The notes under the pieces: model-generated | Database searches by the model: none | Seen by the model: only the letters and a program-made list of their open reading frames with translations | What the model was told of the DNA's origin: nothing | In this document: in pieces, positions 9,724 through 34,500 of the stretch | Layout: every line of letters starts with the position of its first letter | Position numbering within the stretch: position 1 is the first letter of the stretch | Translations under genes and position numbers: made by a program | Origin: a phage | Length of the DNA: 64,000 nucleotides | Assembly (NCBI GenBank): GCA_025832235.1 | Contig: GCA_025832235.1_3649.1 | Strand: one strand, 5' to 3'

Positions 9724-11220
9724 CACACAATATTAGCTGCCCGGCTAAAGTGCTGGAAGCACCTATAACACATCTTTCAACTAAATTTCCTACCACCACA
9801 ATCACTTACCTCCCATACATGACTGTTTGCTTGTTTAGTGAGCAGTCATGCCTTGACATTCTTGCCTATCCTGATAAAATTAAGTTCTTCTCTTTTCTTT
9901 TACCGAGTAATTCGGGTTTTCTGTTCTCTTCGGTTTGAAGGGGTATGGAGATACACCTGAGTGAACAGGGTGAACAACCGAACCATTGGCTATGGCATTA
10001 GCATGGCGAAGCGGACGGGTGACGAAAGAGGGGCCGGAGGACACCAGTCACTGCCATATGATATATGGGTGATAACCTGAAGAGTCTGAATAAGTGTTTA
10101 AGTACCAGTCAGAGGAAAAGGTGAATGGTAGCCGAAGGGGGAGGGGGGTTTCTTGTATCTTTAATTTGTATATTATGTATACACTTGTAAACCAATTTCA
10201 TCTGAATCTGTTTACCACACAAAGTGGATAGAGACAAATATTACCTATTAAACTTGAATTATTTATAGAAAATACCACAACACCACTTAAGTCTTTGATT
10301 TTACACACAAATCTTACAGATATTCAACCTCCATATTTAACATACCTGTAACATATTCCATACTCTACCTGTCTGATCAATCTACCCAACCACATCCTTC
10401 ATATTTTCCCTGTCTGTACCACCCCTGCCCCGCCGGGAGTCCCGTCATATCTGGCTTTCCAGCAAATATCACACCCACAAATATCATTGCCTGAAGAGGG
10501 TTTCATCCCATAATACATGCCTTACCTGAAGAGCGCTTCATACACCACGTAAATTTTTTAATTGACCTGCAATTTTCCCGTCATGACCCCCTGCCCCGCC
10601 GGAGAGGTTGGCTTTTCCCACACAGACCTGAAGAGTCAGCCAGAAATATCTGAACAGGCCCAATTCTACCACGATTTTGACCTGACCTACAGGAGTGCTG
10701 CCAGGCGGACGAAATGGGAATACTTCTCATTCTTATAACAATTCTCAAATATCAAGGCAGTGAGGCAAATTAATAGGCTAGGCCGTTCACACAGTGGCAC
10801 AACATTTGCAATCTATTTTGTGTGGGGGAATGAGAATACATATCATTGTGAGAACCATTATCATTACGGGCAATTTAACATAATACCCATTATGCGCACC
10901 ACTGGCGATACATACAGGGATTGATAACATGAGTTACTGTTTACGCATATAACAATTATATTTATTACTATTTGTGTGGGATATAGTTAGCAGCCGATAG
11001 ATTAGATATTGACCTGCGGACTTCTGACCGTCTAGACGTCTAAACGCCCACACAGCAAGGGTTATACATACATCGCTGAATGTAAACAGGGCCGCAAAAA
11101 TGCTACCATACCAGTTTGTAAATTTTCAATGCAGCACTTGACAAAGAGGAGAAAAACTTGTCTGACACCTTATACACTTTCGATACAATAACGACTGTTA
11201 TTATTTCATGTTTCACTGTT

Positions 11221-12522: not shown

Positions 12523-12795
12523 TTACTTATGGCGGCAGAATTCAAGCGTTTTTAATTGATAATCTTCCTCAGCCTGGAGTACGACCGCCTCGATCATTTC
12601 GTTGGCATTGTTAAAGCCATAACCTTTAGCGAAATCATCCGCGCCACCTTCGTGATCATGTTCTGCGTTCATCGCTTCCACAAAATGGAATTCAAGATTA
12701 TTGAGGTAAGGGCTTGATGTTCCGTCCTCTTTTTCGATGAGATTCCAAATAGCATTAAAACGTGATTCGACTTCTTGATTAATCCAGCTTGACAT
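12523..12795 (-). CDS. hypothetical protein
   Basis: ORF track; SD AGAGAGGAAAAC before ATG. Confidence 0.55.
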   Translation of the reverse strand: MSSWINQEVESRFNAIWNLIEKEDGTSSPYLNNLEFHFVEAMNAEHDHEGGADDFAKGYGFNNANEMIEAVVLQAEEDYQLKTLEFCRHK

Positions 12796-12848: not shown

Positions 12849-12877
12849 ATGTTACCCCACCCCCTGGCAGATGTCAA
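12849..12877 (-). promoter_or_regulatory. sigma70-like promoter (TTGACA-N17-TAACAT)
   Basis: TTGACA (plus-strand TGTCAA 12872-12877), 17-nt spacer. Confidence 0.35.
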
Positions 12878-12902
12878 CGGTTTTTATAGTTCTTATATGA
12901 CA

Positions 12903-12945
12903 GGCAGGCCCGGTGATTGTCTCCACCCGTCGCCAGGTGCCTGCC
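12903..12945. repeat. GC-rich element copy C: GGCAGGC...GAGACAATCACCGGG...GCCTGCC (7-bp terminal inverted repeat)
   Basis: Reverse-complement matches copies at 21536-21571 and 21688-21716. Confidence 0.5.
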
Positions 12946-13005
12946 GTGTAATAAGTATAACAAAAAACAGGACCATAGCAAGCCCTGTTTTGTAGTTTAT
13001 AAATA

Positions 13006-13197
13006 TTATATTTTTTCGCCTATGTAGTCCGGTCGGTTTTTCTCTGTCATGCGCTTTAGCAATTCTTGCATGTTACTTATGGCTTGTAGCGTATCCTCTT
13101 CCAGACTTGAATCAACATAATCAGGATCGTCTATAACCTTTCTATGATTATGATAACGCAGTACCGCCAATACCTTTCTAACTTGTTCGGTATTCAT
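13006..13197 (-). CDS. hypothetical protein
   Basis: ORF track. Confidence 0.5.
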   Translation of the reverse strand: MNTEQVRKVLAVLRYHNHRKVIDDPDYVDSSLEEDTLQAISNMQELLKRMTEKNRPDYIGEKI

Positions 13198-13346
13198 TTT
13201 TATCGCTCTTTAAAACAAGGTGCCAACCGTTTCCAATAGATCACTGACTATCAGGACAATACTGATCAGCACATACCTAACCATAAAGGGAAAGATCGCC
13301 AACATTGCCGCCACGATTCCCATGGTGATAATTATCTTTCTCATGA

Positions 13347-13631
13347 TTAACGGGTCACGTAAGTTTTCCCGTTTACGGTTATCTGCAGATCCTCCAGGTC
13401 TGGATCTTCTTTAAGGTCGCGAGCAAGCTCACCGCACCGGATACCCTCGAATCCGTAGTACTCTGTTGTACCGTCATTAAAAGTTTTAGCGGCAAGGCAT
13501 AAGCGATAAGTAACCCCGATTTGATTGACGGCATGAATATCCGTTAGATTAACCTCTTTTGCCAGCTCTTTAGCCATTACAGGCGCATTAAGTCCAACAA
13601 CCAGGGCAACCACTGCGATCATCTTTTTCAT
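13347..13631 (-). CDS. hypothetical secreted/periplasmic protein
   Basis: ORF track; N-terminal signal-peptide-like MKKMIAVVALVVGLNAPVMA. Confidence 0.6.
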   Translation of the reverse strand: MKKMIAVVALVVGLNAPVMAKELAKEVNLTDIHAVNQIGVTYRLCLAAKTFNDGTTEYYGFEGIRCGELARDLKEDPDLEDLQITVNGKTYVTR

Positions 13632-13722
13632 TGTGTCTATCCTCTTTCTGCTACGTTTAAGGCGGCGGTAACCGCCTGTTTAAGCTTTGTTGGTTAATTT
13701 TCGGGTATCGGTATAAATTAAA

Positions 13723-13938
13723 CTATGCTGTACGCTCAACTATAACAACGGTTTGGGGGATCTCCCCCTCCACCACTAGTAAGGCCTTTTTCTGCGTGAT
13801 AGATATCTTTACCCGTTGCAGCGTGGCGGTGAAGTCTTTCATTTCGTCACGCGGTGTTTTAGTGCAGTACCAGATCTCAGGCTTGCCGATCTGTAAGTTG
13901 CGTAAAAATTCTGTTTTGCCTGTTTTGTTAGTGATCAT
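13723..13938 (-). CDS. hypothetical protein
   Basis: ORF track. Confidence 0.5.
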   Translation of the reverse strand: MITNKTGKTEFLRNLQIGKPEIWYCTKTPRDEMKDFTATLQRVKISITQKKALLVVEGEIPQTVVIVERTA

Positions 13939-13947
13939 TTGTCAACC

Positions 13948-14052
13948 TCACCCGATACCGTTGGAAGACAAGATCACATTAGCCATGGTTGCAATCAGGC
14001 CAATACCCAGGGCAATAACCAGGATCACCGCATCAATTAATTTCTGTTTCAT
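13948..14052 (-). CDS. small hydrophobic peptide (34 aa)
   Basis: Hand-translated MKQKLIDAVILVIALGIGLIATMANVILSSNGIG; SD GAAGAGGAAAAC. Confidence 0.3.
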   Translation of the reverse strand: MKQKLIDAVILVIALGIGLIATMANVILSSNGIG

Positions 14053-14142
14053 TTTGTTTTCCTCTTCTTGTTCCAGGTGGCGGACCATTCCACCGCCTTA
14101 TGTATTATGCTTTGTAAGATGGTTGTTTGTTTTCAAACTATT

Positions 14143-14322
14143 TTAACGATAATCATCGTACGCTTTATTAACCTGGCGAATATAACATTCAAAAGCCAGA
14201 TCAATAGATTTATATTCACGGATATACTCACCATAGGAAACCACATACATTTCTATAGCTTCCTCATATGCGAGGAGAATAGAATCCAAGCCTACGATCT
14301 CAGTCTTTGCAATAATAGCCAT
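14143..14322 (-). CDS. hypothetical protein (59 aa)
   Basis: Hand-translated ORF just under the track cut-off; SD AAAGAGGATAAAAATC before ATG. Confidence 0.4.
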   Translation of the reverse strand: MAIIAKTEIVGLDSILLAYEEAIEMYVVSYGEYIREYKSIDLAFECYIRQVNKAYDDYR

Positions 14323-14369
14323 GATTTTTATCCTCTTTGTGGTTGGTGGGGCTTGCCCCTTTGATTTAT

Positions 14370-14397
14370 ATACTACAGTCTTATATGGTCATGTCAA
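14370..14397 (-). promoter_or_regulatory. sigma70-like promoter (TTGACA-N16-TAGTAT) followed by 5'-UTR hairpin at 14348-14359
   Basis: Plus-strand TGTCAA 14392-14397; hairpin GGGG-CTTG-CCCC. Confidence 0.4.
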
Positions 14398-14627
14398 CTA
14401 TTTTCAAAAAATTTTTCTGCTGTAATATTTTTCCCGGTAGGGTTCGCTACTTTCAAAATTCTATCATGCACCGGACGCCCAAAAGAATAAGCGCCGTACA
14501 CAGTAAACCAATAATCGCCGTCAGGCTGTACTATTACCGCCGCATATGGTACGCCTTTTTCGTTTTTGCTGACAAAATAGATCACATTGCCATTAATAAC
14601 CTCAGCGCGTTTAATTTGTTCCATCAT
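14394..14627 (-). CDS. hypothetical protein
   Basis: ORF track. Confidence 0.55.
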   Translation of the reverse strand: MMEQIKRAEVINGNVIYFVSKNEKGVPYAAVIVQPDGDYWFTVYGAYSFGRPVHDRILKVANPTGKNITAEKFFENS

Positions 14628-14681
14628 GATGATTTACCTCTCTTTATTTTCATAATTGGGGCCTTTTCGGCCCCGCCAGGT

Positions 14682-14966
14682 TTATTTATTGATAGCGTGC
14701 AGCGGGAAAGCTACGCCAGGTTGATAGATAACCTTTACAACCTCATCAGGACAAAAGAAATTGCAGAACTCACCGCAATAGGCCTCATCCTCTTTTAATT
14801 CTTCATCAGCATACTCAAAAAAGTAGTCGATGCTTGGATAATCCTGCCCTGGGTTATAGTCAACCATTGTCAAGACCAGTTCAAGATCGTTGCGCAGGAT
14901 ATGCATACCCGCTTTTAAGTATTTTGCTTCCATTTCTACTACATCGCCAGCGGTAACAATAGCCAT
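14682..14966 (-). CDS. hypothetical acidic protein
   Basis: ORF track 14682..15014; internal ATG at 14966 (MAIVTAGD...) follows AGGAG. Confidence 0.5.
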   Translation of the reverse strand: MAIVTAGDVVEMEAKYLKAGMHILRNDLELVLTMVDYNPGQDYPSIDYFFEYADEELKEDEAYCGEFCNFFCPDEVVKVIYQPGVAFPLHAINK

Positions 14967-15107
14967 AGTTTTAACTCCTGTTTCTGTTAATGATTGGGGG
15001 CCGCCCCCTGACACGTACTATTATCCATATTGTAGGGCTTGATGCAAGTACTTCTTTAAAAAAATTTTTAAGCGCCTTGGAGGCCGTTGTAACGCCAAAA
15101 TAATAAA

Positions 15108-15127
15108 GGCCATGCGGTTGCATGGCC
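15108..15127 (-). terminator. rho-independent terminator (GGCCATGC-GGTT-GCATGGCC)
   Basis: 8-bp stem; on minus strand followed by UUUAUUAUUUU; downstream of stop of 15189..15494. Confidence 0.5.
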
Positions 15128-15188
15128 TTTATGTGATTATATCGCTGTAGGCCCTGCTAGGGGCCTTATTTTGCATCATTTGCCGGAA

Positions 15189-15494
15189 CTATACAGAGAA
15201 AACATCGTTCACAATAGCGATCACAATGCCGCCCACCTTGTCACGGTCAACAATGCACAAATCACCATAGATCATGTGGTAGTCTGGATGATCTTTCACG
15301 GAATAGTCAATGAGCGTTTTCTTGTCGTCCAGCTTTGTAACTTCCATTCTCATAACGATATGAGAATCATCAAAGGCATTATTCCGAAAAGTCATAGCCT
15401 GACCACCAGGGCACCCAGTGATCTCCACTTCCACACCATCTACGATCTGACCATCAAAGAAATAAAGATTATTAGCCTGGATAAACATGATCAT
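15189..15494 (-). CDS. hypothetical protein
   Basis: ORF track; SD AAGGAG. Confidence 0.55.
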   Translation of the reverse strand: MIMFIQANNLYFFDGQIVDGVEVEITGCPGGQAMTFRNNAFDDSHIVMRMEVTKLDDKKTLIDYSVKDHPDYHMIYGDLCIVDRDKVGGIVIAIVNDVFSV

Positions 15495-15535
15495 TACTCC
15501 TTGTTAACTGCGTGGTATTTTAACAGGGTTTAAAT

Positions 15536-15579
15536 TTACTTTATTGATGGCCCTAGAGTCAAGGCCATCTAAAAATAAA
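15536..15579 (-). promoter_or_regulatory. conserved 45-bp element, copy 1: hairpin GATGGCC...GGCCATC with TTGACT in the loop, then TAAATT (-10-like)
   Basis: Near-identical to copies at 19248-19292 and 19868-19912. Confidence 0.5.
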
Positions 15580-15581
15580 TT

Positions 15582-15782
15582 TTACAGGCCTACAATCTCT
15601 TTGATTCGTTTAACCGCCGCCTCAGCGCCTTGGGGGTAAAAATTATGGTAACCAATCACGCGAGTGATACTAATCGCCGTTTGATGATCTTCATAGTCGC
15701 CCTTGAAGATTTCTTGACCGTCAATCAGCACGGCAATTTTTTCTTCTTTTTTGAAGTTAATAACGCGGATATTGTTGCTCAT
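15582..15782 (-). CDS. hypothetical protein
   Basis: ORF track. Confidence 0.55.
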   Translation of the reverse strand: MSNNIRVINFKKEEKIAVLIDGQEIFKGDYEDHQTAISITRVIGYHNFYPQGAEAAVKRIKEIVGL

Positions 15783-16040
15783 TTTTGTTTCTCCTTTCTG
15801 GTTTTTGTGTTGGTGGGGATGTTTCCCCGTTGATTGTTATTATCCATATTCAGGACCGGATTGCAACACCCCGGAAGAAAAATTTTTTGAAAAAAGTTAG
15901 GCCCCCAGGGATCGGGGGCCGTTATCAGTTACTTACAGAGATAAAATACATCCCTACGCCTAACAATATTTCAAGGGCGATGATCTCAAGCCATACCATA
16001 ACACGGCGCACCTTATCGGTGCGGGGCTTATCCTTGGGTG

Positions 16041-16286
16041 TCATCGTCTCCCCCTTCCCTCCTGGTAGTAGTGACGTGGTTTACAATGGCCCCCAGGAGT
16101 ACCATCACCACGCACATCACAAGAAAAATTATCTCCGCTGTTGTTCGATCCATTGTTATAAAATTCCTCAAGATCAGGCCTGAAAATAAAGCGTTCGTTA
16201 TTGAATCCGTCACGCCAGGCGGCTGGCTTCAAATCTTCACTAAAGGGATTAATTAACGTGGCATTATTTAAACGGTTGGCCCACAT
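16041..16286 (-). CDS. hypothetical protein
   Basis: ORF track 16041..16304 (TTG); ATG at 16286; overlaps 3' end of 16264..16635 in another frame, so uncertain. Confidence 0.35.
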   Translation of the reverse strand: MWANRLNNATLINPFSEDLKPAAWRDGFNNERFIFRPDLEEFYNNGSNNSGDNFSCDVRGDGTPGGHCKPRHYYQEGRGRR

Positions 16287-16635
16287 ATTTTCTATTCCTC
16301 TCAAATAGGCGATCCGCCTCAGTTAAACATATCTCATGGGCTTGATCTCTGGTTTTAGCTTCATCGAAAACTTGTTGTGCAAGGCTGCAACGCAAGGAGA
16401 CCGGAAGATCACTATAATAGGCGTTGACAAACGTTTGAGCGTCGTACAGGTCTGAAAATACTTTACCCTTTCTATTATTCCCCTTGTCAACAATTGCAAG
16501 GATAACCAATACAATAGTTGCAACCACCCCCAGGAAAATAGATATAATAAACCATAAAAAGGCGGATCTACCCATCTTGCCAGCGATCCAGGCGTTAAAC
16601 AAGGCAACCAATACAGCCAAAATAATAAATTCCAT
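16264..16635 (-). CDS. hypothetical membrane protein (two predicted TM helices)
   Basis: ORF track 16264..16668; ATG 16635 follows AAAGAGG; TM-like MEFIILAVLVALFNAWIAG and FLWFIISIFLGVVATIVLVILAIV. Confidence 0.55.
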   Translation of the reverse strand: MEFIILAVLVALFNAWIAGKMGRSAFLWFIISIFLGVVATIVLVILAIVDKGNNRKGKVFSDLYDAQTFVNAYYSDLPVSLRCSLAQQVFDEAKTRDQAHEICLTEADRLFERNRKYVGQPFK

Positions 16636-16699
16636 TCTATGTACCTCTTTTGCAGTTCTGTTTAACAATAAGGCGGCAAATATGCCGCCTGTTACCTGA

Positions 16700-17080
16700 T
16701 TAAAAATTATCGCCGTAAATCTTTCCGCTTTCTGCCCACACCACCACGCGGGGCATACTATCCCACACGTCTTGTTTTAGATTGAGCGCGTGCAATTCTT
16801 CGGTGGTGCCCATACCTGGCACGGGCTGATTGTATACTGCAAAACGACCACCCGCATAGTCATAGGCCAGAGTTAAATCACACTGGATCATCTTTTTGAT
16901 CATGGCATTAAGCATGGCATTAGCCGCATACTGATCACGTTTTAAAGGCAACTCTTTGATTAGTTTGCGATAGTTTTCAATGTGATCGCACACTGTTTCA
17001 CGTGGAAGATCTTTCATATCCTCGCGAAAGGTAACCAGGTTAAACATGACGGTGTCAATAGCTTTAGTAGTGTTTTTCAT
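16700..17080 (-). CDS. hypothetical protein
   Basis: ORF track 16700..17113; ATG 17080 follows AGAGGAAAAC. Confidence 0.55.
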   Translation of the reverse strand: MKNTTKAIDTVMFNLVTFREDMKDLPRETVCDHIENYRKLIKELPLKRDQYAANAMLNAMIKKMIQCDLTLAYDYAGGRFAVYNQPVPGMGTTEELHALNLKQDVWDSMPRVVVWAESGKIYGDNF

Positions 17081-17171
17081 GATGTTTTCCTCTTTGTTTT
17101 GTGTGGGGGGCAAACGTCTTGCCCCCTTGAGTTTTAATATAGCAGGTTTTTAGGTTATTGCAACACTTTAT

Positions 17172-17795
17172 TTATGAAAAAGTCATCTCGCCATATTCAT
17201 CCACATCAAACCGCCAATCATTGGCCTCGATAAGGCCGATCAGGTTTTCGGTAGTGAATTGTTCAAGATAGGCTTGCTCCAGGTCTACGTAAACCTTGCG
17301 GGATAGCTCCCGTACCGTCTCGGTGATCAGCTCTTCCAGCTCTTCAACTTTATCCTCTTGCTTGGTGGTCAGGTCTAGCCAATTGGTATCGATGCACCCG
17401 CCTATTGTGTTTTCGTGGTGATAATGGCTAAACGGGATACGCTCAACGCTTGCGGATAGCTCGCCATCGTGCATTGTGCCGAACAAGTGACGAATTGAGC
17501 GGAATTTAGTCAAAGACTTGACTTTACGCAAGAATTTTTCTAAGTTTACATTTTCAGCGCTAATTGACGCGCCGTCACCCTGGCACCAAAAGCCGGACCA
17601 ATGTACATCTGTATCTTCAAGCCCGTACTCTGGAAAAACATATTCTTTATAGTATTCAATTACACTTTCTGCAAAAAAGTTATCCCCGCTGTGTTCTTCT
17701 CTTTCGCGGACCATTTCAACGGCTTTTTCTTTTTGTTCGTCGGTCAGCACGTCGAAAGATAAATTGTAACCTGTGGTAATGTTAACGGTGGTCAT
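17172..17795 (-). CDS. hypothetical protein
   Basis: ORF track; own promoter and hairpin; no motif recognised. Confidence 0.6.
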   Translation of the reverse strand: MTTVNITTGYNLSFDVLTDEQKEKAVEMVREREEHSGDNFFAESVIEYYKEYVFPEYGLEDTDVHWSGFWCQGDGASISAENVNLEKFLRKVKSLTKFRSIRHLFGTMHDGELSASVERIPFSHYHHENTIGGCIDTNWLDLTTKQEDKVEELEELITETVRELSRKVYVDLEQAYLEQFTTENLIGLIEANDWRFDVDEYGEMTFS

Positions 17796-17823
17796 GATAT
17801 TTTCTCCTATTTTCTTTGTTGGT

Positions 17824-17842
17824 GGCGGGAAGTTTTCCCGCC
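17824..17842 (-). promoter_or_regulatory. 5'-UTR stem-loop (GGCGGGAA-3-TTCCCGCC)
   Basis: 8-bp GC stem a few nt downstream of the predicted -10. Confidence 0.5.
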
Positions 17843-17852
17843 TGTGTGTTTA

Positions 17853-17880
17853 AGTATACTTATCGAGATTTACTTGTCAA
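17853..17880 (-). promoter_or_regulatory. sigma70-like promoter (TTGACA-N16-TATACT)
   Basis: -35 overlaps last codons of upstream gene 17870..18130; -10 TATACT. Confidence 0.55.
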
Positions 17881-18130
17881 CACTATTTTTTAAATTATTG
17901 TGGCGCAAAATGTTTAAAATCTCTTCAACGTCATCAACACGGCGGCAATTTTTAAACGCTACCAATTGCCCCATGATTTTAATCACTGGGCGGCCTTGCC
18001 AGTGCCCCTGAAGAAAGCGCGCCTTGACTTTATCGGTGGAACTATCACGCCACCAAATAGCCTTGTTGTTGCAGTAGTAAAAATTATTCAGGATAACATC
18101 AACTTTATCAAAATTTTTTAATTTACGCAT
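17870..18130 (-). CDS. hypothetical protein
   Basis: ORF track. Confidence 0.55.
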   Translation of the reverse strand: MRKLKNFDKVDVILNNFYYCNNKAIWWRDSSTDKVKARFLQGHWQGRPVIKIMGQLVAFKNCRRVDDVEEILNILRHNNLKNSVDK

Positions 18131-18535
18131 GGCGTTTACTCCTTTCTCTCTTTGATGTGGTTAGTATAGCTAACCTGTTGACGATGTCAATGATATTTTT
18201 AACGCCATAAAACGGCCCTGGGCGATGTTTTCAGGTTAAAGGGGGCGATTGCATAGGTGGGGGCCTTTTTGGCACTTACAGGGCCAACCAGGGGCGCTAT
18301 TCGTAGGATAGAAATAAAAAGCCCCGCACAATGGCGGGGCGTTGGTTGTTATTTGTCTTTATGGCGGTACCGTTCCGCCTGTCGTTCACGTTCCAAAAGC
18401 AGGCCCGGCAGTTTACGATCATAATGATTCCGCCAGATCTTCCCAAATCTTTTTGGCTTATTCAGTTTATTGTTCCGCTGGCGGCGTTCCGGCAGCTCTT
18501 CGGAATCATGAGATCGCTTTAAAATCTTTTCAAAA

Positions 18536-18883
18536 TTAATCTTCATATATTCCCCCCTTGCTAACTTCAATATTGGCCTGAATAGCCCGGATACGGCGCT
18601 TTATAACTTCCTGATCTGTGTGATCGTATCCCCAAAAGTCTACAATTTTTGCGCCCCCAGCTTCCAGGCGGTACAGTGTTTCCTGCATTTTGTAAGCCGG
18701 GATCGGTCGCGGTGTTACTTGGTCACCTTCTTTATTTTTATACTTTATAATATAATCTTCATTATCGTTGAATGTCCAAAATGGATATTCTGCAAGGGCG
18801 GTACTTTCCTTTTTATCCTGGATCTTGTTTACAATTAAAGCCGTAGCAATAGCGCCAATAATAAAACTAGCCCCGCTGATCAT
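18536..18883 (-). CDS. hypothetical membrane-anchored protein
   Basis: ORF track 18536..18946; ATG 18883 follows GAAAGGAG; N-terminal TM-like ISGASFIIGAIATALIV. Confidence 0.55.
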   Translation of the reverse strand: MISGASFIIGAIATALIVNKIQDKKESTALAEYPFWTFNDNEDYIIKYKNKEGDQVTPRPIPAYKMQETLYRLEAGGAKIVDFWGYDHTDQEVIKRRIRAIQANIEVSKGGIYED

Positions 18884-18958
18884 GTACTTTCTCCTTTCAT
18901 TGTGTTGATAAACTATCTTTATAGATGGCCCTGCTACCAGGACCACCGAAAAACCAGC

Positions 18959-19204
18959 TTATTTGACGATACCGACAAAACAGATCCCGCCTTCCCCTAT
19001 ATAGGCGATATCGGTAATTTGATAATTTGTCAAGATCCGCGTGTTCAGATCATTAATAAAATCGGTCATCGCGTTGGTGTAGTTGTCTTCCGTGTCTAAG
19101 GCATAATCCCAGGTGTAAACCTTTTTACGTCCGAAGCCTTTTACCATGATACGGGCGCTTTTGGTGTTGGTAGGGGCATAATATTTGGTAATTAGTGCGG
19201 CCAT
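18959..19204 (-). CDS. hypothetical protein
   Basis: ORF track; SD GAGGAG. Confidence 0.55.
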   Translation of the reverse strand: MAALITKYYAPTNTKSARIMVKGFGRKKVYTWDYALDTEDNYTNAMTDFINDLNTRILTNYQITDIAYIGEGGICFVGIVK

Positions 19205-19247
19205 TGTTTTAACTCCTCTGTATTAGTTCAGTGTTAACAGTGTAAAG

Positions 19248-19292
19248 TTTACTTTATTGATGGCCCTGGAGTCAAGGCCATCTAAAAATAAA
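19248..19292 (-). promoter_or_regulatory. conserved 45-bp element, copy 2 (hairpin with TTGACT in loop + TAAACT)
   Basis: Immediately downstream of stop of 19294..19635 and about 45 nt upstream of 18959..19204 start. Confidence 0.5.
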
Positions 19293-19293
19293 T

Positions 19294-19635
19294 TTACTCG
19301 TTTTCTTCCAGTTCTGCAAGCTCTTCTTTCACTTCTTCAAGCTCTGTTTGCAATTCCTGGTATTCTTCATCGTCCTCAATATCCAGGCTGTCGATGTAGT
19401 CGCTAAATCCGCAGCGGTAAGCGATAGGATCTAACTCCTTGAGGATACGCGACGGAAGAAAAGAAATGTTTCCGATCATAATTTCGCCATAGATCTCGTC
19501 TAACCATTCATCATAGTTTTCGTCGTACTTGTCCTCGTCGATTTCAAAATTATCGATCTTGTTCTCAAGGTCTGCGATCTGTTTTTTCAGCGCGGCGATC
19601 TGCATGGCTTTTTCTGTGGCGGTCATAGTAGTCAT
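19294..19635 (-). CDS. hypothetical highly acidic protein
   Basis: ORF track; about 30% Asp+Glu with acidic C-terminal tail; own promoter/hairpin. Confidence 0.55.
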   Translation of the reverse strand: MTTMTATEKAMQIAALKKQIADLENKIDNFEIDEDKYDENYDEWLDEIYGEIMIGNISFLPSRILKELDPIAYRCGFSDYIDSLDIEDDEEYQELQTELEEVKEELAELEENE

Positions 19636-19660
19636 AGTGTTTTCTCCTTTTGTGTGCTTT

Positions 19661-19673
19661 GGGAAGTTTTCCC
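19661..19673 (-). promoter_or_regulatory. 5'-UTR stem-loop (GGGAA-3-TTCCC)
   Basis: Same hairpin family. Confidence 0.45.
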
Positions 19674-19686
19674 GTTTACGTGTTTA

Positions 19687-19714
19687 AGTATACTGATTTA
19701 AGTTAGCTTGTCAA
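19687..19714 (-). promoter_or_regulatory. sigma70-like promoter (TTGACA-N16-TATACT)
   Basis: Plus-strand TGTCAA 19709-19714 and AGTATA 19687-19692. Confidence 0.55.
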
Positions 19715-19834
19715 TTAAAAGTTTAAGAAAAATTTTGCTACACCGTTGGCACTACCCATCAACATTTGCGCCAGGATGTAACCAATGATGCAAACGATAA
19801 TAGTTACCTTTGTGTGCTGGCGTGTAGTACTCAT
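19715..19834 (-). CDS. small hydrophobic peptide (39 aa)
   Basis: Hand-translated MSTTRQHTKVTIIVCIIGYILAQMLMGSANGVAKFFLNF; SD AAGGGGG; preceded by element copy 3. Confidence 0.4.
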   Translation of the reverse strand: MSTTRQHTKVTIIVCIIGYILAQMLMGSANGVAKFFLNF

Positions 19835-19867
19835 CTTTAAGCCCCCTTTCCGCTCAACTGTGGTTAG

Positions 19868-19912
19868 TTTACTTTATTGATGGCCCTGGAGTCAAGGCCA
19901 TCTAAAAATAAA
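19868..19912 (-). promoter_or_regulatory. conserved 45-bp element, copy 3
   Basis: Directly downstream of stop of 19914..20309. Confidence 0.5.
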
Positions 19913-19913
19913 C

Positions 19914-20309
19914 TCAGTAAGTTTTCAGTACTTTCCCGTCCAACCTGTCTAACTGAATCTCAATAGCTGCAGAAAACCTATTGTAAACCACATCGCCCAG
20001 GGAGTCCAGCCAATCTATGACGTTATACACCTGCTCTTTATTCTTGCAAGTCCGGATCCGTTTCATTACGTAAGACGGATCAATATTAGCGCTCTCGTTG
20101 TTGTGGTCATGCGCCTGGCCTGCTGCGCTAGTTATAGATTTTACAACCACCTGAAAGGGCTTTAAGGTGCCTTTTGCGTTCATCTCACGCGCTTTCGCGG
20201 CGCGGTTGTTGTATGTTACACAACGGCGGCAAATGTTGACCAAATGCATATCAATAATTTTTTCATCGTTTGCCAGTTCGTTCATGATGCGGCGTACGTT
20301 CTTATTCAT
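19914..20309 (-). CDS. hypothetical protein
   Basis: ORF track; SD AGGAAAAAAG. Confidence 0.55.
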   Translation of the reverse strand: MNKNVRRIMNELANDEKIIDMHLVNICRRCVTYNNRAAKAREMNAKGTLKPFQVVVKSITSAAGQAHDHNNESANIDPSYVMKRIRTCKNKEQVYNVIDWLDSLGDVVYNRFSAAIEIQLDRLDGKVLKTY

Positions 20310-20329
20310 GATCTTTTTTCCTTTGTGTT

Positions 20330-20348
20330 GGCGGGAAACATTCCCGCC
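20330..20348 (-). promoter_or_regulatory. 5'-UTR stem-loop (GGCGGGAA-3-TTCCCGCC)
   Basis: Same stem as 17824-17842 with a different loop. Confidence 0.5.
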
Positions 20349-20358
20349 TTTTGTGTAT

Positions 20359-20386
20359 AGTTTACTTGAATTTTGCAGCGTGTCAA
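20359..20386 (-). promoter_or_regulatory. sigma70-like promoter (TTGACA-N16-TAAACT) abutting an A18 tract
   Basis: Plus-strand TGTCAA 20381-20386; homopolymer immediately upstream on the minus strand. Confidence 0.5.
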
Positions 20387-20389
20387 TAA

Positions 20390-20407
20390 TTTTTTTTTTT
20401 TTTTTTT
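20390..20407. repeat. 18-nt homopolymer (T on plus, A on minus strand)
   Basis: Uninterrupted T run; overlaps stop codon of 20406..20804. Confidence 0.7.
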
Positions 20408-20804
20408 ATTCGTGGGCACATGTTACAATGTGCTTTTTATATCCCAGGCGGTCAGCAAGTGCCGACAAAAACTCTTCTTCGTAGATCCAGCCGTCGGCAG
20501 TGATCCCCATAGCATTTAATGCGCTCTCAAGTGCTGCGTTAGCTTTATCATAACCGTGACCGCTCGCCTTGCCGCCAGTATAGCCGTACTTATTGTTCTT
20601 GTTGTCGTGTATCCAAAAAACGCAGTAGTGAGTGTTCCCACTGGCGGCGGCATAATACCGGATCTCAGCTACTTCGTGCAAATTATTGTCATCGTCCAGG
20701 CCCACCAGATTATAAGCCTTATAAAATCCACGATCACGGCGGCAGTTCTTGACATCAGAAAAAGAAAAGTCCGCATTGTCAAAATTAAAGGTAGTGGTTT
20801 TCAT
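20406..20804 (-). CDS. hypothetical protein
   Basis: ORF track. Confidence 0.55.
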   Translation of the reverse strand: MKTTTFNFDNADFSFSDVKNCRRDRGFYKAYNLVGLDDDNNLHEVAEIRYYAAASGNTHYCVFWIHDNKNNKYGYTGGKASGHGYDKANAALESALNAMGITADGWIYEEEFLSALADRLGYKKHIVTCAHE

Positions 20805-20868
20805 GATTTTATCCTCTTAGTGTTTTTTGTGCTTTTAGTGTATTTTGTGTCAGGCTATATGTCAATAC

Positions 20869-21066
20869 TTATTTTTTATTAAACCAGTGGTTGATCTGGC
20901 CTTTTGTCAGGGCGCAACGATTAAGCTGTTGCAGGGTATAGCTATGACCGCGACGAAATTTATAAAGGCCTTGCCCGTTGTTGATGGTTACATCCGCCCG
21001 GCAAATCACTTGATTGGTGACCACCTGGCGAGTGTTGCGACGTGCTTTGATTCCGTATGCGTTCAT
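20869..21066 (-). CDS. hypothetical protein
   Basis: ORF track; SD GAGAGGACAAG. Confidence 0.45.
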   Translation of the reverse strand: MNAYGIKARRNTRQVVTNQVICRADVTINNGQGLYKFRRGHSYTLQQLNRCALTKGQINHWFNKK

Positions 21067-21144
21067 GATTTCTTGTCCTCTCTGTTAATTAGTGGGGTGT
21101 TGTTCACCTTGCGAGAATAAGAATAACAAGAACTGTCCGAGCTG

Positions 21145-21327
21145 TCAACCATTAGTTAAAATTATTTTTTGGGTAGAATTCTCCAGCCGCCGCCCCTGCC
21201 AGGTTAACCACCGTTTTTCGTACTCTTCTTTATGTTCCAACGCTCCCGCCATAGCCTTTTCAACCAGGGCGATAGCCTCAGCGTCATTAATCGCTACATT
21301 TCCCAGGTGAGTAGCATTACCTTTCAT
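21145..21327 (-). CDS. hypothetical protein
   Basis: ORF track; SD GAGGAGG. Confidence 0.4.
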   Translation of the reverse strand: MKGNATHLGNVAINDAEAIALVEKAMAGALEHKEEYEKRWLTWQGRRLENSTQKIILTNG

Positions 21328-21535
21328 TTTTGTACCTCCTCTTCAATTGTTACCTATCCTATAGCATAGGCCCACCAGGTTTGCAAGCCTTCATTCTCTC
21401 CTACCTGGTCAGTTAGGCCCTGCCAGGCTGGCCCCGCCAGGTTGCAGCGGTCAGCGCATCAGGTTAGAAATTTTTTTTTTTGAAAAGTGTTGACAGCGGC
21501 CCCGCCAGGTGGCAAAATATACCTATCGAAAGGAC

Positions 21536-21716
21536 GGCAGGCACCGGTGACGGGGGAGACAACCACCGGGGATGGGCGCTGCATAAAATGAGAACGGTTA
21601 TCATTATCATTTAAAAATTTATGCAAAAAAAAAAATCCTTGCTTTCTTTGTCCTGTGTGATACTATAATAACAAGCCGGGGCAACAGGGGCCGGGAGACA
21701 ATCACCGGGCCTGCCC
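21536..21716. repeat. GC-rich element copies A (21536-21571) and B (21688-21716), each followed by a conserved AT-rich tail
   Basis: Shared core GGGAGACAA(C/T)CACCGGG; third inverted copy at 12903-12945. Confidence 0.5.
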
Positions 21717-21957
21717 GTTATTCTGCAAACGAGAATGATTATCATTCAAAATTCTAAATGAGAACTCCTCGCATTTAATAAATTTAATTAGCATGCTAAT
21801 TACCTTCCGTAACAATCTCCTATAAAATAGTGCCCCATAAAATATTCCCATATAGAAATTTTAAAAATCCATTTCTGAAAACGAAAAATCGATTTCGTCC
21901 CCAAAAATTTCAGGTCGAGAGCTGGAACGATTTCCAGAAAATCCGATTCAGAAAACG

Positions 21958-22039
21958 AAAAACAGATCGAGTACTGAGAAATTTGTCGAGAAAAATTTTC
22001 AGAAAATCAGGTCTTTGAAATGAAAAACAGATCGAGTAC
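21958..22039. repeat. 17-bp perfect direct repeat AAAAACAGATCGAGTAC (21958-21974 and 22023-22039)
   Basis: Exact repeats 65 bp apart; related GAAAACGAAAAATCGAT at 21877-21893. Confidence 0.55.
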
Positions 22040-22351
22040 CGAAAGAGATGTGCCGAAACTTTCTGATAATAATGGACTTATTGTTATAAAAGGTCAGAGG
22101 TAAGCTGGGAAAGTTCTGGTAGAAGGGTGAGAGTATGTGCGGAAAATCTGGAATAGTGACTTAAAGTACGGTGCGAACGATAGAATGAGCAGCACATCTT
22201 ATCGTGCCTGTCTTGAAAAATCCATTTTAGTTTTCGATCCATTTTCTGATTTTCTAAGAATTTTAAAATATCTGGCCCGGTGAAATATCAAAAGGAGGAA
22301 ATCCATTTTAGAAATCCTCCTTACACTTGATATGCCAGGGATTTTCAAGTA

Positions 22352-31282: not shown

Positions 31283-31558
31283 CAATAGTTCAGGTAGGTC
31301 GTTAAGCTACCCCGCACCATTACGTGCATAGCCATACGTTTTCACGTAGGATCGGACCATCTCATATTCCTATGATAAGCAACCACAGGAATCCTCCCAT
31401 TTCGACCGCACTTGCTGGTCTACTTCCTTTCGGAATGGCCTCTGAGCGTTCGCTCTTTTGAGCGCTTCGTTGCGGATTACCTTGCCATAAGGTTTAGGCT
31501 TCCCGCAGTTAAAGAGGTTATTCGACATAGATTACTCTATGAAGCCACAATGTTATTT
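31283..31558 (-). mobile_element. group I intron (276 nt, ORF-less) in the DNA polymerase gene
   Basis: Splits H|DE of motif C; 5' exon ends in U, intron ends in G; IGS GUGG pairs with exon CCAU; P-like AACUGCGGGAAG (31499-31510), Q-like AAUCCGCA (31471-31478), R-like GCUCAGAGGCCA (31436-31447), S-like GAGAUGGUCC in canonical order; stops in all frames. Confidence 0.7.
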
Positions 31559-34500
31559 ATGGTAATAAATAATACGACGAACACCTTCATCGTACCACCC
31601 ACGCTTCACCATCTGGCGGTGCATGAGTATTCCAACTAAGTCACACAGCGATGCACCACCATTTTGTTGGTATGCATTAAGTAAAGAGTGTTTAGATCTG
31701 GTCCAGATAGCATGACCATCAAAAGAGTAGATAAACTTCTTACCCGTTGCTTCCCAGAATTTCTCCAGATCTTCTTTACGCCCCTTAAGACCAGGGTTGG
31801 CATCCCAGAGTGCATCGATTACCCTTTGTCCCAACTCTGGAGAGATGTCCAGCATATCTGCAACTTTATCTTTTTGTGCCCCATACATAACCCCATACGT
31901 GATAGGTTTACCGTCGTTACGGGAAATCTCCTTGCCTGCTACAGAAGAGTAAGCTTTGGCGTTATTACAGTTACCGCACACTGCCACTTTACCATTCCTT
32001 CTCACAATGATTGCTCCAGAAGGGACGGTAACGCAATAAACCAAAGAACCGCTCACCTCGACAGACTCTTTAGATAGTGTCAGCAACCCTGCTCTCTGTT
32101 TGCTACCAATTGTGATTCTGTGCTGCACGGCACGACCTTTTTTGTGAATCGCCACCGTATTATTCCGTAAACCACACTGAGTAGCCAGCGCAGACACCAC
32201 CTCTACAGATTTCTTCCTGCACTCGGCCTGGGAGTAGTAAGCAACCTTTCCACCTTCGGAAGATACCCACCCGTCCCAGTTAGATAAAGAAGCTATAAAC
32301 AGGTTTTTAGATTCTTTATCAAGGTTCATCAGGTTATAGGTGAAATCCTTATTGTTGTCCAAAAACTCAAATACCCAGGACGGAACGTGGAATTGGAACC
32401 TTCTCGCCAGTAAGCCTCCTTTTGTGGTTTTCCCGCTCTGCTCTACATAACTAAGGCTTAGAGCAGAAAAAGTATCTAAAAGCGTTGCAACTTTTCTTCC
32501 CTTTCCGACCTGAATCCTGCACACGATGCTGCCGTCCTTATTTGTATGCAAGTGCCCATCATCGTGAATAGCAATAAGCAAATTAACCTGGGCAGGAGAT
32601 AAGGTTGTATTCCCATAAAACTCTGCCGCATGGATAAACCTTCTTCCTGAATTAGACCCTTTACCTGCTTTCAGGTCTTTTGCCAAATCTTCAAACAATT
32701 TATTGCTTCTGTGATCCACAGTCAGCATCCTGTGTTGATCTGTAACCATAAAATCCACACTACTGTTGTGGAAATGATACATATCCCCACAATAACTACG
32801 CTTAACGTAATTTAATGGAGTAACAAGGTTCATTGACGAGGTGTTGTGATCGTACTGGAACACTTGTGTTCCCGGATCAAGATCTTCAAACCTCACCCAC
32901 CCTTTCTCCGTGAGAATTTGTGTATCTCCTGAATAACAGTGTGCATCGCCGTTACTTACAACATCGTAATACAGGCCGTTGTCGAACTCAAAGGCACCCC
33001 AAGCCCCGATAAGCTGCTCTAAGTTGGACCCGTCAATACCGATCTCAAAGTATCCTGGAGGAACACCCCACAGACTACGCATCTCTTTACCCATAACCAC
33101 TTTAGGAGATGGTTTAGGCATGTTTGCACAAATACTGTGTTTCTGTCGGGAAGTGTTTGTTAATCCAGAACTTTTAGCAGGAAGCTTATGGTCAATCTTC
33201 AAACGTGGGTGATTAAGAAGACCAGTATCAACCTTATCCTCCTTGATTGGATCAAGGACCGATCTGCGGTTTCGCAATGATAACCACAAGACGATATCTT
33301 TAGCCATCTCTCCGTTCAATTTTTCAAGATTCGGGCATAGGTGTCCAAACGTATCTTTCAGTTGCGGAGAAGTAATAAGTGCCCTAGCTTTTCTACGTAT
33401 TTTCCCGAATACTTCCTTTTTAATCCTTTCGGAGTTAGGAAAGCTTCTGAACTTGTGCACGGTTGTCTGGAACTTAGCATCAGTTTTGTTCCAGAAGTTG
33501 ATAATTAGGTCACAATACTCTGACTCTAAAAGCTCGTCCATATATGCATACACTCGTGCATCAACATCTGCATCAGGTAGAGCTTTCTTCTTGCTGTCTT
33601 TAGTTACATCCTTAGTTCTCCACATTGTCGGAAGCCAACCAGCACTGATCAGGTATCGCTTAATATCGTCCTGATTGCTGATTTTCATAGGTATCTTGCA
33701 GTCAGGCATTCGCTTCTGCTGTAGATCACTTATTGCCTGATCCATTAGCTCTTTAGGTAAAGGTTGTGGTGTGGAGGTGCCCTTGATATAGCCCCTCAAG
33801 AAATCCGCCATCTTATCAGGGTCTTTACAGCCCATCTCTTCACACCATTTTATCCCCATCTTACTGACATCTCCTGTGGAGGTAAATGCTCGCTTAGGAG
33901 GAGCTTTGAATTCTAAAGCACTCATGTCCACAGGGTAGCCAAGCTTGTCTTTTAACCATTTCCAACCATTATTGGAGATTGTCCCATCCTGGTTAAACGG
34001 CTTTTCAGGGAACTTAGGCCGCTGAGACATTGATAACTCTTTTAAAGGAAGTTGTGGTTCAACACGATCAGCGATCTCTTTCATCCACGCATCGCAGCGG
34101 TCACGTAAAGCAATAGCCCCATCTATGTCGAAATACACACCCTGTCGAGCCTGCAGCTCCATCAGGAAATGTTGCAGCATGCCTCGGCGTAATGCATTCT
34201 TCCAGGTAATCTTCTTGAATCCTTTAGGCTTCTCTTTGGCAGGGTCATACATAAAGTTCTGCATGTCAGATTTGCCGTAGAATACACCTTTTGATTCCGC
34301 TACCAACTCTTTCCAGAGCAACTCCTGGATGATAACGTCCTCGAACACACGATCCACATATTTCCACAGCGGAAGATCGCGCCAGTCATCAATTTGAACT
34401 TTCTGGTTACCAAGGGCGTAGCCCCATGCCATAAGGCCGTGAGGACCAACAGGTTGCATTTTCTTAGTAACCGGGTTGAATACAGCGTCCGGACAACCTT

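Follow-up and report, generated by a model that had tools for sequence, protein, structure and literature searches.

A GC-rich, promoter-proximal element with a common core in an rV5-like Vequintavirus and in other phage groups

Early transcripts of some phages carry short RNA signals close to their promoters. The nut sites of lambdoid phages are of this kind, and so are the putL and putR sites of phage HK022, which specify antiterminator RNAs that act in cis, lie in sense orientation just 3' of an early promoter, need no phage protein and act on the conserved polymerase of the host (PMC9378689). A different early region is known from T5, whose injection-stop signal (iss) lies in an untranslated repeat region and whose first-step-transfer DNA bears inverted repeats at two sites (bioRxiv 10.1101/866236). 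The present analysis concerns a 64,000-nt stretch of phage DNA, hereafter the window (assembly GCA_025832235.1, contig GCA_025832235.1_3649.1), which belongs to an rV5-like Vequintavirus and holds a GC-rich imperfect hairpin of ∼45 nt in exactly three copies, here termed A, B and C. As judged from sequence comparison, the element probably represents a regulatory signal that is conserved at the beginning of early transcripts. The sequences bear out the copies, their sense placement close to predicted promoters and their conservation across phage families.

Three copies and their promoters

A search of the window with the 16-nt core common to the copies, GGAGACAAYCACCGGG, returned three matches (Table 1), against a chance expectation of 0.54 matches even with three mismatches allowed. 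A profile hidden Markov model made from 26 members of the family found the same three sites only, with E values of 6e-5 to 3e-4, the next match standing at E = 8. The copies are real and non-random, and the original prediction, which had placed three GC-rich copies at these sites, one of them inverted, is borne out by exactly three core matches. The core and the 3' arm are common to A, B and C, whereas the 5' arms diverge, reading GGCAGGCACC in A and B (in the latter from 21536) and GCCGGGGCAACAGGGGCC in C. Copy C terminates with GGAGACAATCACCGGGCCTGCCC at 21716 and is followed by UUAUUCUG. The longest inverted repeat of the window, as returned by a repeat finder, joins copies A and C: its arms, 12897-12924 and 21694-21721, are 28 nt long and 93% complementary. 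On the plus strand copy A is bounded, as had been claimed, by the perfect 7-bp inverted repeat GGCAGGC (12903-12909)/GCCTGCC (12939-12945). This repeat represents one of two alternative registers of the outer helix: a CC/GG swap beside the core toggles GGCAGGC/GCCUGCC and GGCAGGCACC/GGUGCCUGUC between the window and phage Gotham, and both registers pair.

Every copy lies sense to, and 3' of, a predicted sigma70-type promoter (PA, PB and PC). The hairpin starts 3-12 nt, and at most 15 nt, past the predicted start, at about +3 in the case of copy A, and the core is found at ∼+24 (A), ∼+31 (B) and ∼+20 (C). Copy A appears inverted because it lies on the leftward-transcribed strand. The initial description of the elements as dispersed and orientation-independent is therefore misleading, as all three copies, together with ∼35 copies in other phages, share the same orientation towards an upstream sigma70-type promoter and nearly the same distance from it. 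Promoters PA and PC are alike in sequence. A terminator-like hairpin of the upstream gene (12964-12991; terminator scan) overlaps PA, and the -10 element of PB reads CATAAT or CACAAT in relatives. PC was not called by the promoter scan, whose rule is exceeded by a spacer of more than 18 nt; its orthologues in phages CR3 and phAPEC8 have spacers of 16-17 nt. The order promoter, element, second promoter and gene around copy A recurs in PA5oct-like and uncultured phages. Downstream of B a palindromic box precedes PC, and C is followed by further boxes and AT-rich repeats.

The window is ∼93% identical to the rV5-like phages navn, JES2013 and Gotham. Alignment with Gotham maps the physical left end and a 459-bp direct terminal repeat to ∼10706-11165, so that the window runs across the genome ends. 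Two minus-strand genes flank copy A, which is located 2.2 kb from the left end in a tract where the small early genes from 12.2 kb on are all on the minus strand. Copies B and C are 10.8-11.0 kb from the left end, at ∼8% of the genome, in a ∼1-kb non-coding region. The rV5 genome paper draws this stretch as a 'non-coding' box without explanation, and its supplements do not include PA, PB and PC (PMC3606486). Annotation of the flanking proteins with PHROG and Pfam gave only unknown small proteins.

Table 1. Positions of the element copies, their predicted promoters and associated features in the window (ORF, open reading frame)
Feature	Position	Strand	Description
Copy A	12903-12945	-	∼43-nt imperfect hairpin, outer helix GGCAGGC/GCCUGCC, leftward; core GGAGACAATCACCGGG at 12909-12924
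Promoter PA	12954-12981	-	TTGCTA-16-TATACT with TG; predicted start near 12947-12949 (promoter scan)
Second promoter-like site	12849-12877	-	TTGACA-17-TAACAT, between copy A and gene 12523-12795 (minus strand, 90 aa)
Non-coding region holding B and C (∼1 kb)	21328-22351		No ORF >62 aa; flanked by leftward genes
Promoter PB	21490-21518	+	TTGACA-17-CAAAAT with upstream TG; predicted start near 21525
Copy B	21536-21582	+	Hairpin GGCAGGC...GCGCUGC, inner stem CCGGUG/CACCGG; core GGAGACAACCACCGGG at 21555-21570; z -2.2
Palindromic 7-1-7-type box after copy B	21590-21612		GAGAACGGTTATCATTATCATTT; 16/19 match to Fur consensus, best in window
Promoter PC	21639-21669	+	TTGCTT...TATAAT, 19-nt spacer, or extended -10 TGTGATACT; predicted start near 21672; read from sequence
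Copy C	21679-21716	+	Hairpin GGGCA...UGCCC, predicted apical part CCGG-GA[GACAA]UC-A-CCGG; core at 21694-21709
Boxes after copy C	21731-21775		GAGAATGATTATCATTC (21731-21747, 15/19 Fur) and degenerate ATGAGAACTCCTCGCATT

The stretch 21370-21520 also contains four to five GC-rich repeats (GGCCCCGCCAGGT and variants), each with a CCWGG Dcm site. They overlap the PB spacer and the leftward promoter of gene 21145-21327 and look like operators. An analogous repeat, GGCCCGGCGGG, is present in CR3.

Distribution of the core and the accompanying boxes

The core, (G)GGAGACAA-N-CACC, occupies the same promoter-proximal place in several phage groups. The family consensus is (G/C)(G/A)GAGACAA-N-CACC, where N is U, A or C, and the predicted distance from start to core stays within ∼+16 to +31 across the family despite differing promoters. 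Within the Vequintavirinae the core is present in Cronobacter phages CR3 and GAP31, Pectobacterium phage P7_Pc, Erwinia phage Hena1, Salmonella phages SSBI34, SalP219 and SSE121, Klebsiella phage BIS47 and Serratia phage ChuuTotoro; in the Stephanstirmvirinae (phAPEC8-like) it is found in phAPEC8, nieznany and ABPW7, and Pseudomonas phage PsgM04F has it in promoter-proximal position as well. The motif search that had been proposed as a check thus gave three sites in the window and conservation in relatives. An inverted A-type copy lies ∼10.7 kb from the C-type copy in CR3 and P7_Pc; with the spacing at 9-11 kb in the window and in these two phages, the inverted pair is conserved in the subfamily. 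Roughly 450 GenBank genomes contain the C-type unit, and ∼25 of them entered the comparison. Additional A-type variants were recovered from two IMG/VR contigs only.

In PA5oct-like jumbo phages the promoter TTGCAT-17-TATTAT is followed by GGGGGAGACAATCACC, a box, a second promoter and a 79-aa gene opposed to its neighbours, and the unit containing the element lies entirely within the long terminal repeat. Many copies come from uncultured phages of ∼42-47 kb, in which the core heads at least 14 distinct cassettes or transcription units, found on both strands and in every case associated with a promoter and a gene. The cassette consists of a terminator, (TGn)TATAAT, N6, cAATACCTGARAACGGGGGAGACAAWCACC, operator-like TGTAA repeats, a second promoter and a gene. 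Conservation is low from the -10 hexamer to +1 and high from ∼+1 to +35. The metagenome contigs concerned (Ga0255098_1000234, L220; Ga0255090_1000022, L224; Ga0228700_1000372, L228; Ga0255088_1000376, L230) carry many small genes as repeated cassettes, with TGTAA/ATAACATT repeats and a second promoter that has a conserved leader of its own, GAACACAUCAAGACAAC.

The 43-nt sequence has zero matches in 5,426 complete E. coli genomes, which lends no support to a host copy or a prophage origin. A 16-mer scan of bacterial genomes gave at least 120 matches; those listed look chance-like and, judged by eye from their flanks, are mostly in coding DNA (EETTTG and GETIT contexts), and the matches of a second IMG/VR scan, with a 15-mer, were mostly chance matches in coding DNA. 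BLASTP between sampled regions of Vequintavirinae, the ∼45-kb phages and PA5oct-likes returned no shared protein, only noise.

Palindromic boxes accompany the element in Vequintavirinae, phAPEC8-likes, PsgM04F and PA5oct-likes. In the groups infecting enterobacteria and in the PA5oct-likes they have the form AATGAGAAT-N-ATTCTCATT or AAATGCGAAT-N-ATTATCATTTGCA and follow the element by 20-40 nt. The boxes after copy C are kept in all C-type orthologues and in the iss region of T5-like phages, and BLAST places the same boxes in the T5-like untranslated repeat region. Box-like palindromes occur also at the genome terminus, at four sites within 10715-10863. In similarity to the Fur consensus the first box after copy C shares second place with a site at 2361 (15/19 each), and chance alone commonly yields matches of 13/19 or better.

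T5-likes, CR3 and phAPEC8 share repeats of the TTGTAAAGA type and a GCCG-GTAGTTCGTC block. More broadly, the ∼1-kb region of Vequintavirinae and phAPEC8-likes and the T5-like iss region have AAATGCGAATCATTATCATTTGCA palindromes and TTGTAAAGA-N-TGTAAAGA repeats in common (stretches compared: window 21328-22351; L041 11702-12660; L234 1290-2200; L235 1200-1600). The ∼1-kb region also shares its position, ∼8% from the left end, with the end of the first-step-transfer DNA of T5. This resemblance suggests a common pre-early control or DNA-entry region in Vequintavirinae, phAPEC8-likes and T5-likes. A 2026 PNAS paper reports that Demerecviridae and Vequintaviruses are both highly sensitive to daunorubicin (PMC13250531).

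Several other features of these regions deserve mention. Three direct repeats of ∼65-74 nt with GAAAAC-GAAAAAC-GATCGAGTAC (GATC sites) at 21851-22054 look like iterons, and matching CGATCGAGACCC repeats are present in CR3 and P7_Pc. In CR3, phAPEC8, Hena1 and P7_Pc a promoter 5' of the C-type unit drives a conserved, ORF-less predicted transcript of ∼100 nt (…GGAGACGCCACCCCACGGCGAAAAGGCGGGGCUAAC…GGUGGAUCGCCGGUAGUUCGUC; L041 11790-11925; L235 1215-1340; L162 10790-10915; L163 11600-11720 and 11795-11920). It may be a structured non-coding RNA, and it gave no match in Rfam. Elsewhere in the window, a group I catalytic intron (RF00028, full-length match, 64.7 bits, E 4e-14) at 31333-31568 on the minus strand presumably interrupts a minus-strand gene. 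A family of 57-nt repeats, 86-100% identical (15523-15579, 19236-19292 and 19856-19912), can be read on the minus strand as a terminator hairpin with a sigma70 promoter, which calls to mind the mobile promoter/stem-loop cassettes found in T4-type phages. Finally, ∼20 GenBank records (MG0656xx) named 'Campylobacter phage', with C. jejuni as host, are ∼93% identical to E. coli rV5-like phages in this region, and that host assignment looks doubtful.

RNA signal, DNA site or small RNA

The explanation tentatively favoured here, with a probability of about 40%, takes the element to be an RNA signal in the 5' leader that a conserved component of the host reads during transcription. It would constitute the 5'-proximal module of three early transcripts made by the host sigma70 RNA polymerase, with the motif placed at ∼+16 to +31, towards the top of a GC-rich imperfect hairpin. 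Copy A would lead into the second promoter and two small early genes; B and C would head two tandem, ORF-less rightward transcripts in the non-coding region, which then run into the palindromic boxes. The motif would serve as an RNA tag on the nascent transcript. Its reader may be the elongating polymerase or its factors, or alternatively the RNA decay or ribosome machinery. The effect would be exerted at the next obstacle, that is, a hairpin with a U-rich tail, operator-like boxes or a second promoter, and would consist in read-through and processivity or in a change of transcript fate.

RNA as the active form, the nature of the reader and the effect are what we infer from these patterns. A host reader is proposed since the motif is common to unrelated phages, whose hosts are E. 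coli, Pseudomonas or unknown, without a shared protein detected in the genome parts compared. This lack of a shared protein and the dependence of PA5oct on host polymerase (PMC7318152) both fit such a reader. The onset of conservation at ∼+1 in the uncultured phages is as expected of a transcribed signal and favours RNA.

Folding gives a mixed picture. The window copies are predicted to form single imperfect hairpins of ∼38-47 nt with the core near the top and mostly unpaired. Compared with dinucleotide shuffles, folding is better for copy B, the CR3 copy and the A-type copies (z -2.2 to -3.9); copy A has a minimum free energy of -26.2 kcal/mol and a z-score of -3.9. In the Vequintavirinae the outer helix is retained although the 5' arms differ, and a second A-type lineage (phages A51.2, phita32 and AlexBoehm) pairs a different 5' arm by means of G-U pairs.

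A number of observations nevertheless weigh against an RNA signal. Most other members show no such advantage over shuffles, among them many C-type orthologues, the PA5oct-like copy and all copies of the uncultured phages; z is ∼0 for the uncultured-phage copies, for Paride and for many C-type orthologues. When 16 C-type orthologues were aligned with MAFFT, RNAalifold found no consensus helix, which is attributable to 5' arms that cannot be aligned by sequence. At the position that would close the predicted GACAA loop, U, A and C interchange freely. The promoters and start sites at the copies are predictions, and the protein comparison covered parts of the genomes. We know of no host factor that recognizes the core sequence. 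The conservation would be accounted for just as well by a sequence-specific DNA site at +16 to +45, and DNA is also suggested by the palindromic boxes that regularly accompany the element, such boxes being typical operators in DNA. The first reading had offered protein-binding sites or small structured RNAs; this range of ideas was right, yet a uniform structure does not hold, significant folding by z-score being limited to a minority of copies. With a stable hairpin significant in only some copies, we conclude that the constrained feature is the invariant primary sequence of 12-16 nt. The hairpin would present the core in the Vequintavirinae, as the folding models indicate, and is not established as a trait of the whole family.

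The main rival treats the core as an operator in double-stranded DNA, acting alone or with the downstream boxes, where a protein bound at ∼+16 to +95 would block or modulate these promoters. We consider this somewhat unlikely. It would account for the conservation of primary sequence rather than structure and for the weak dyad of the core (GGAGA-CAA-TCACC), although the T of the right half-site is the freely variable position. It would also give a role to the 7-1-7 palindromes that co-occur with the element in Vequintavirinae, phAPEC8-likes, PsgM04F and PA5oct-likes, to the boxes after B and C as the best and equal second-best Fur matches of the window (16/19 and 15/19), and to the operator-like TGTAA repeats that follow the element in uncultured phages. 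Conservation, however, begins at the predicted +1 and does not straddle the start; the sense orientation is strict across independent promoter contexts; no shared DNA-binding protein was found among the sampled regions; and the outer helix is retained by changes compatible with G-U pairing.

It is doubtful that B, C and the orphan copies elsewhere are genes for trans-acting small RNAs of ∼55-100 nt, in which the loop would act as a seed or decoy for a conserved host RNA or protein and with which copy A would merely share a module. B and C do have predicted promoters and no ORF 3' of them, and the core is mostly unpaired in the predicted folds. A conserved U-rich UAUUCUG follows the C-type hairpins in all genera and is absent after A and B, but the scan for terminators gave none at the element on its own strand. 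One copy in an uncultured phage and the PA5oct-like copy are antisense to neighbouring genes; copy A and most copies of the uncultured phages, on the other hand, lead into genes. The terminal repeat of PA5oct is a source of abundant non-coding RNAs, but the four with an annotation map to other loci (PMC7318152). No complementary target was found within the window, and the E. coli genomes hold no match to the 43-nt sequence.

Quite unlikely is a function at the level of DNA, in which the copies as inverted repeats or hairpins would mark the first-entering ∼8% of the genome and take part in DNA entry, looping or replication, in the manner of the IRC/IRD repeats of T5 or of an origin. The inverted A-type/C-type pair 9-11 kb apart in the window, CR3 and P7_Pc recalls the two inverted-repeat sites in T5 first-step-transfer DNA (bioRxiv 10.1101/866236). 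The non-coding region around B and C, at ∼8%, has boxes and TTGTAAAGA repeats in common with T5-like regions, and the CC/GG swap resembles quasi-palindrome correction. The T5-like terminal repeat, however, lacks the core, the non-coding region of the window lacks DnaA boxes, the many copies of the uncultured phages lie on both strands with a promoter and a gene attached to each, and the fixed distance from the promoter would be left unexplained. Very unlikely is a neutral passenger of mobile promoter cassettes spread by recombination, of the sort that T4-type phages shuffle as promoter/stem-loop units, or a chance repeat: PA and PC do resemble each other and the cassettes of the uncultured phages are repeated as units, but only the 12-16-nt core is kept across families while flanks, promoters and downstream genes differ, which is the signature of selection on the core, and the match statistics of the core search and the profile exclude a chance repeat.

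On a wider view, the motif could be a new promoter-proximal signal, read by the host transcription machinery, that forms with the T5-type boxes a 'pre-early control module' of unrelated large virulent phages, a proposal that we regard as rather improbable. Such a module would span Vequintavirinae, phAPEC8-likes and PA5oct-likes, with T5-likes having the boxes only. In Vequintavirinae the motif would mark orphan rightward promoters at an injection-stop-like boundary, at ∼8% of the genome, which would imply T5-like stepwise and/or transcription-assisted DNA entry, or a termination-resistant polymerase. To our knowledge, next to nothing is known of how rV5-like, phAPEC8-like and PA5oct-like phages control their early genes, and several of them are candidates for therapy. 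A 12-16-nt signal that stays invariant at the head of selected early transcripts, whatever the phage family or host, suggests a shared means of engaging the host machinery, one that is directly testable. Moreover, its iss-like location opens new systems for the long-standing question of what stops and restarts DNA entry of the T5 type.

Comparison with described systems

Searches for known classes of element gave little. With Rfam 15 the window has nothing at gathering score besides the group I intron, and only noise at E ≤10 in the window regions and at E ≤1 in the CR3 region; ARAGORN found 0 genes for transfer or transfer-messenger RNA in the window. The terminator scan called none of the three copies, as their loops exceed its rule, and only the C-type is followed by UAUUCUG. 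There is no match to the ops element of RfaH.

Several candidates were considered and set aside. A dispersed repeat like repetitive extragenic palindromes or miniature inverted-repeat transposable elements is at odds with three copies only, all promoter-proximal, and none in the 5,426 E. coli genomes. A mimic of ToxI, which consists of 36-nt tandem repeats, has no match in P7_Pc, and the pseudo-ToxI escape locus of phage phiTE is at a different place (PMC3475682). The GGA expected of CsrA sites is not conserved in phAPEC8 or SSE121, the T of a sigma-dependent pause at GACAAT varies, and a T7-type promoter would lack its conserved upstream part. A k-turn, a G-quadruplex and a mini-ORF starting at AUC were also considered and dropped.

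The 19-bp Fur consensus GATAATGATAATCATTATC resembles the boxes after B and C and not the GC-rich element itself. These boxes do not cover the promoter but are located 3' of the start site, and the PA5oct-like box matches the consensus at ∼10/19 by hand count.

The surroundings of B and C resemble the iss region of T5 both in position, a large untranslated region ∼8% from the left end, and in their shared palindromes and repeats. At the position corresponding to copy C, T5-likes have a different GC-rich hairpin ahead of the first box, and this lacks the GAGACAA-N-CACC core. T5 has paired DnaA boxes, whereas none (TTATCCACA, ≤1 mismatch) was found in 21328-22351.

The nut sites share with the element the nature of a promoter-proximal signal in early transcripts, which for the element is a prediction. 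No boxA (CGCUCUUUA-like; 9-mer with ≤2 and 13-mer with ≤4 mismatches) is present in the A or B/C regions, and no N-like protein was identified. The boxB of P22 carries a GACAA pentaloop. The predicted GACAA loop of the C-type copies, closed by A-U, offers a lead to P22 boxB only, as the closing base varies, many copies are not predicted to form this loop and others are predicted to have larger ones.

The put sites resemble the element in being phage-borne and placed in sense orientation just 3' of an early promoter. Since put acts on the conserved host polymerase, suppressing terminators and pauses in cis by way of the beta' zinc-binding domain, it provides a precedent for a motif shared by unrelated phages. 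In contrast, put is an RNA of ∼70 nt whose two stem-loops form a V and which also contains a triplex, whereas the element has one predicted hairpin of ≤50 nt, or is unstructured in some phages; the two have no sequence similarity and the element has no second stem-loop. By analogy, put and nut are the nearest precedents for a possible mode of action, and the element belongs to neither class. Undescribed in Rfam or in the literature found, it is a new form of the promoter-proximal phage leader/operator type.

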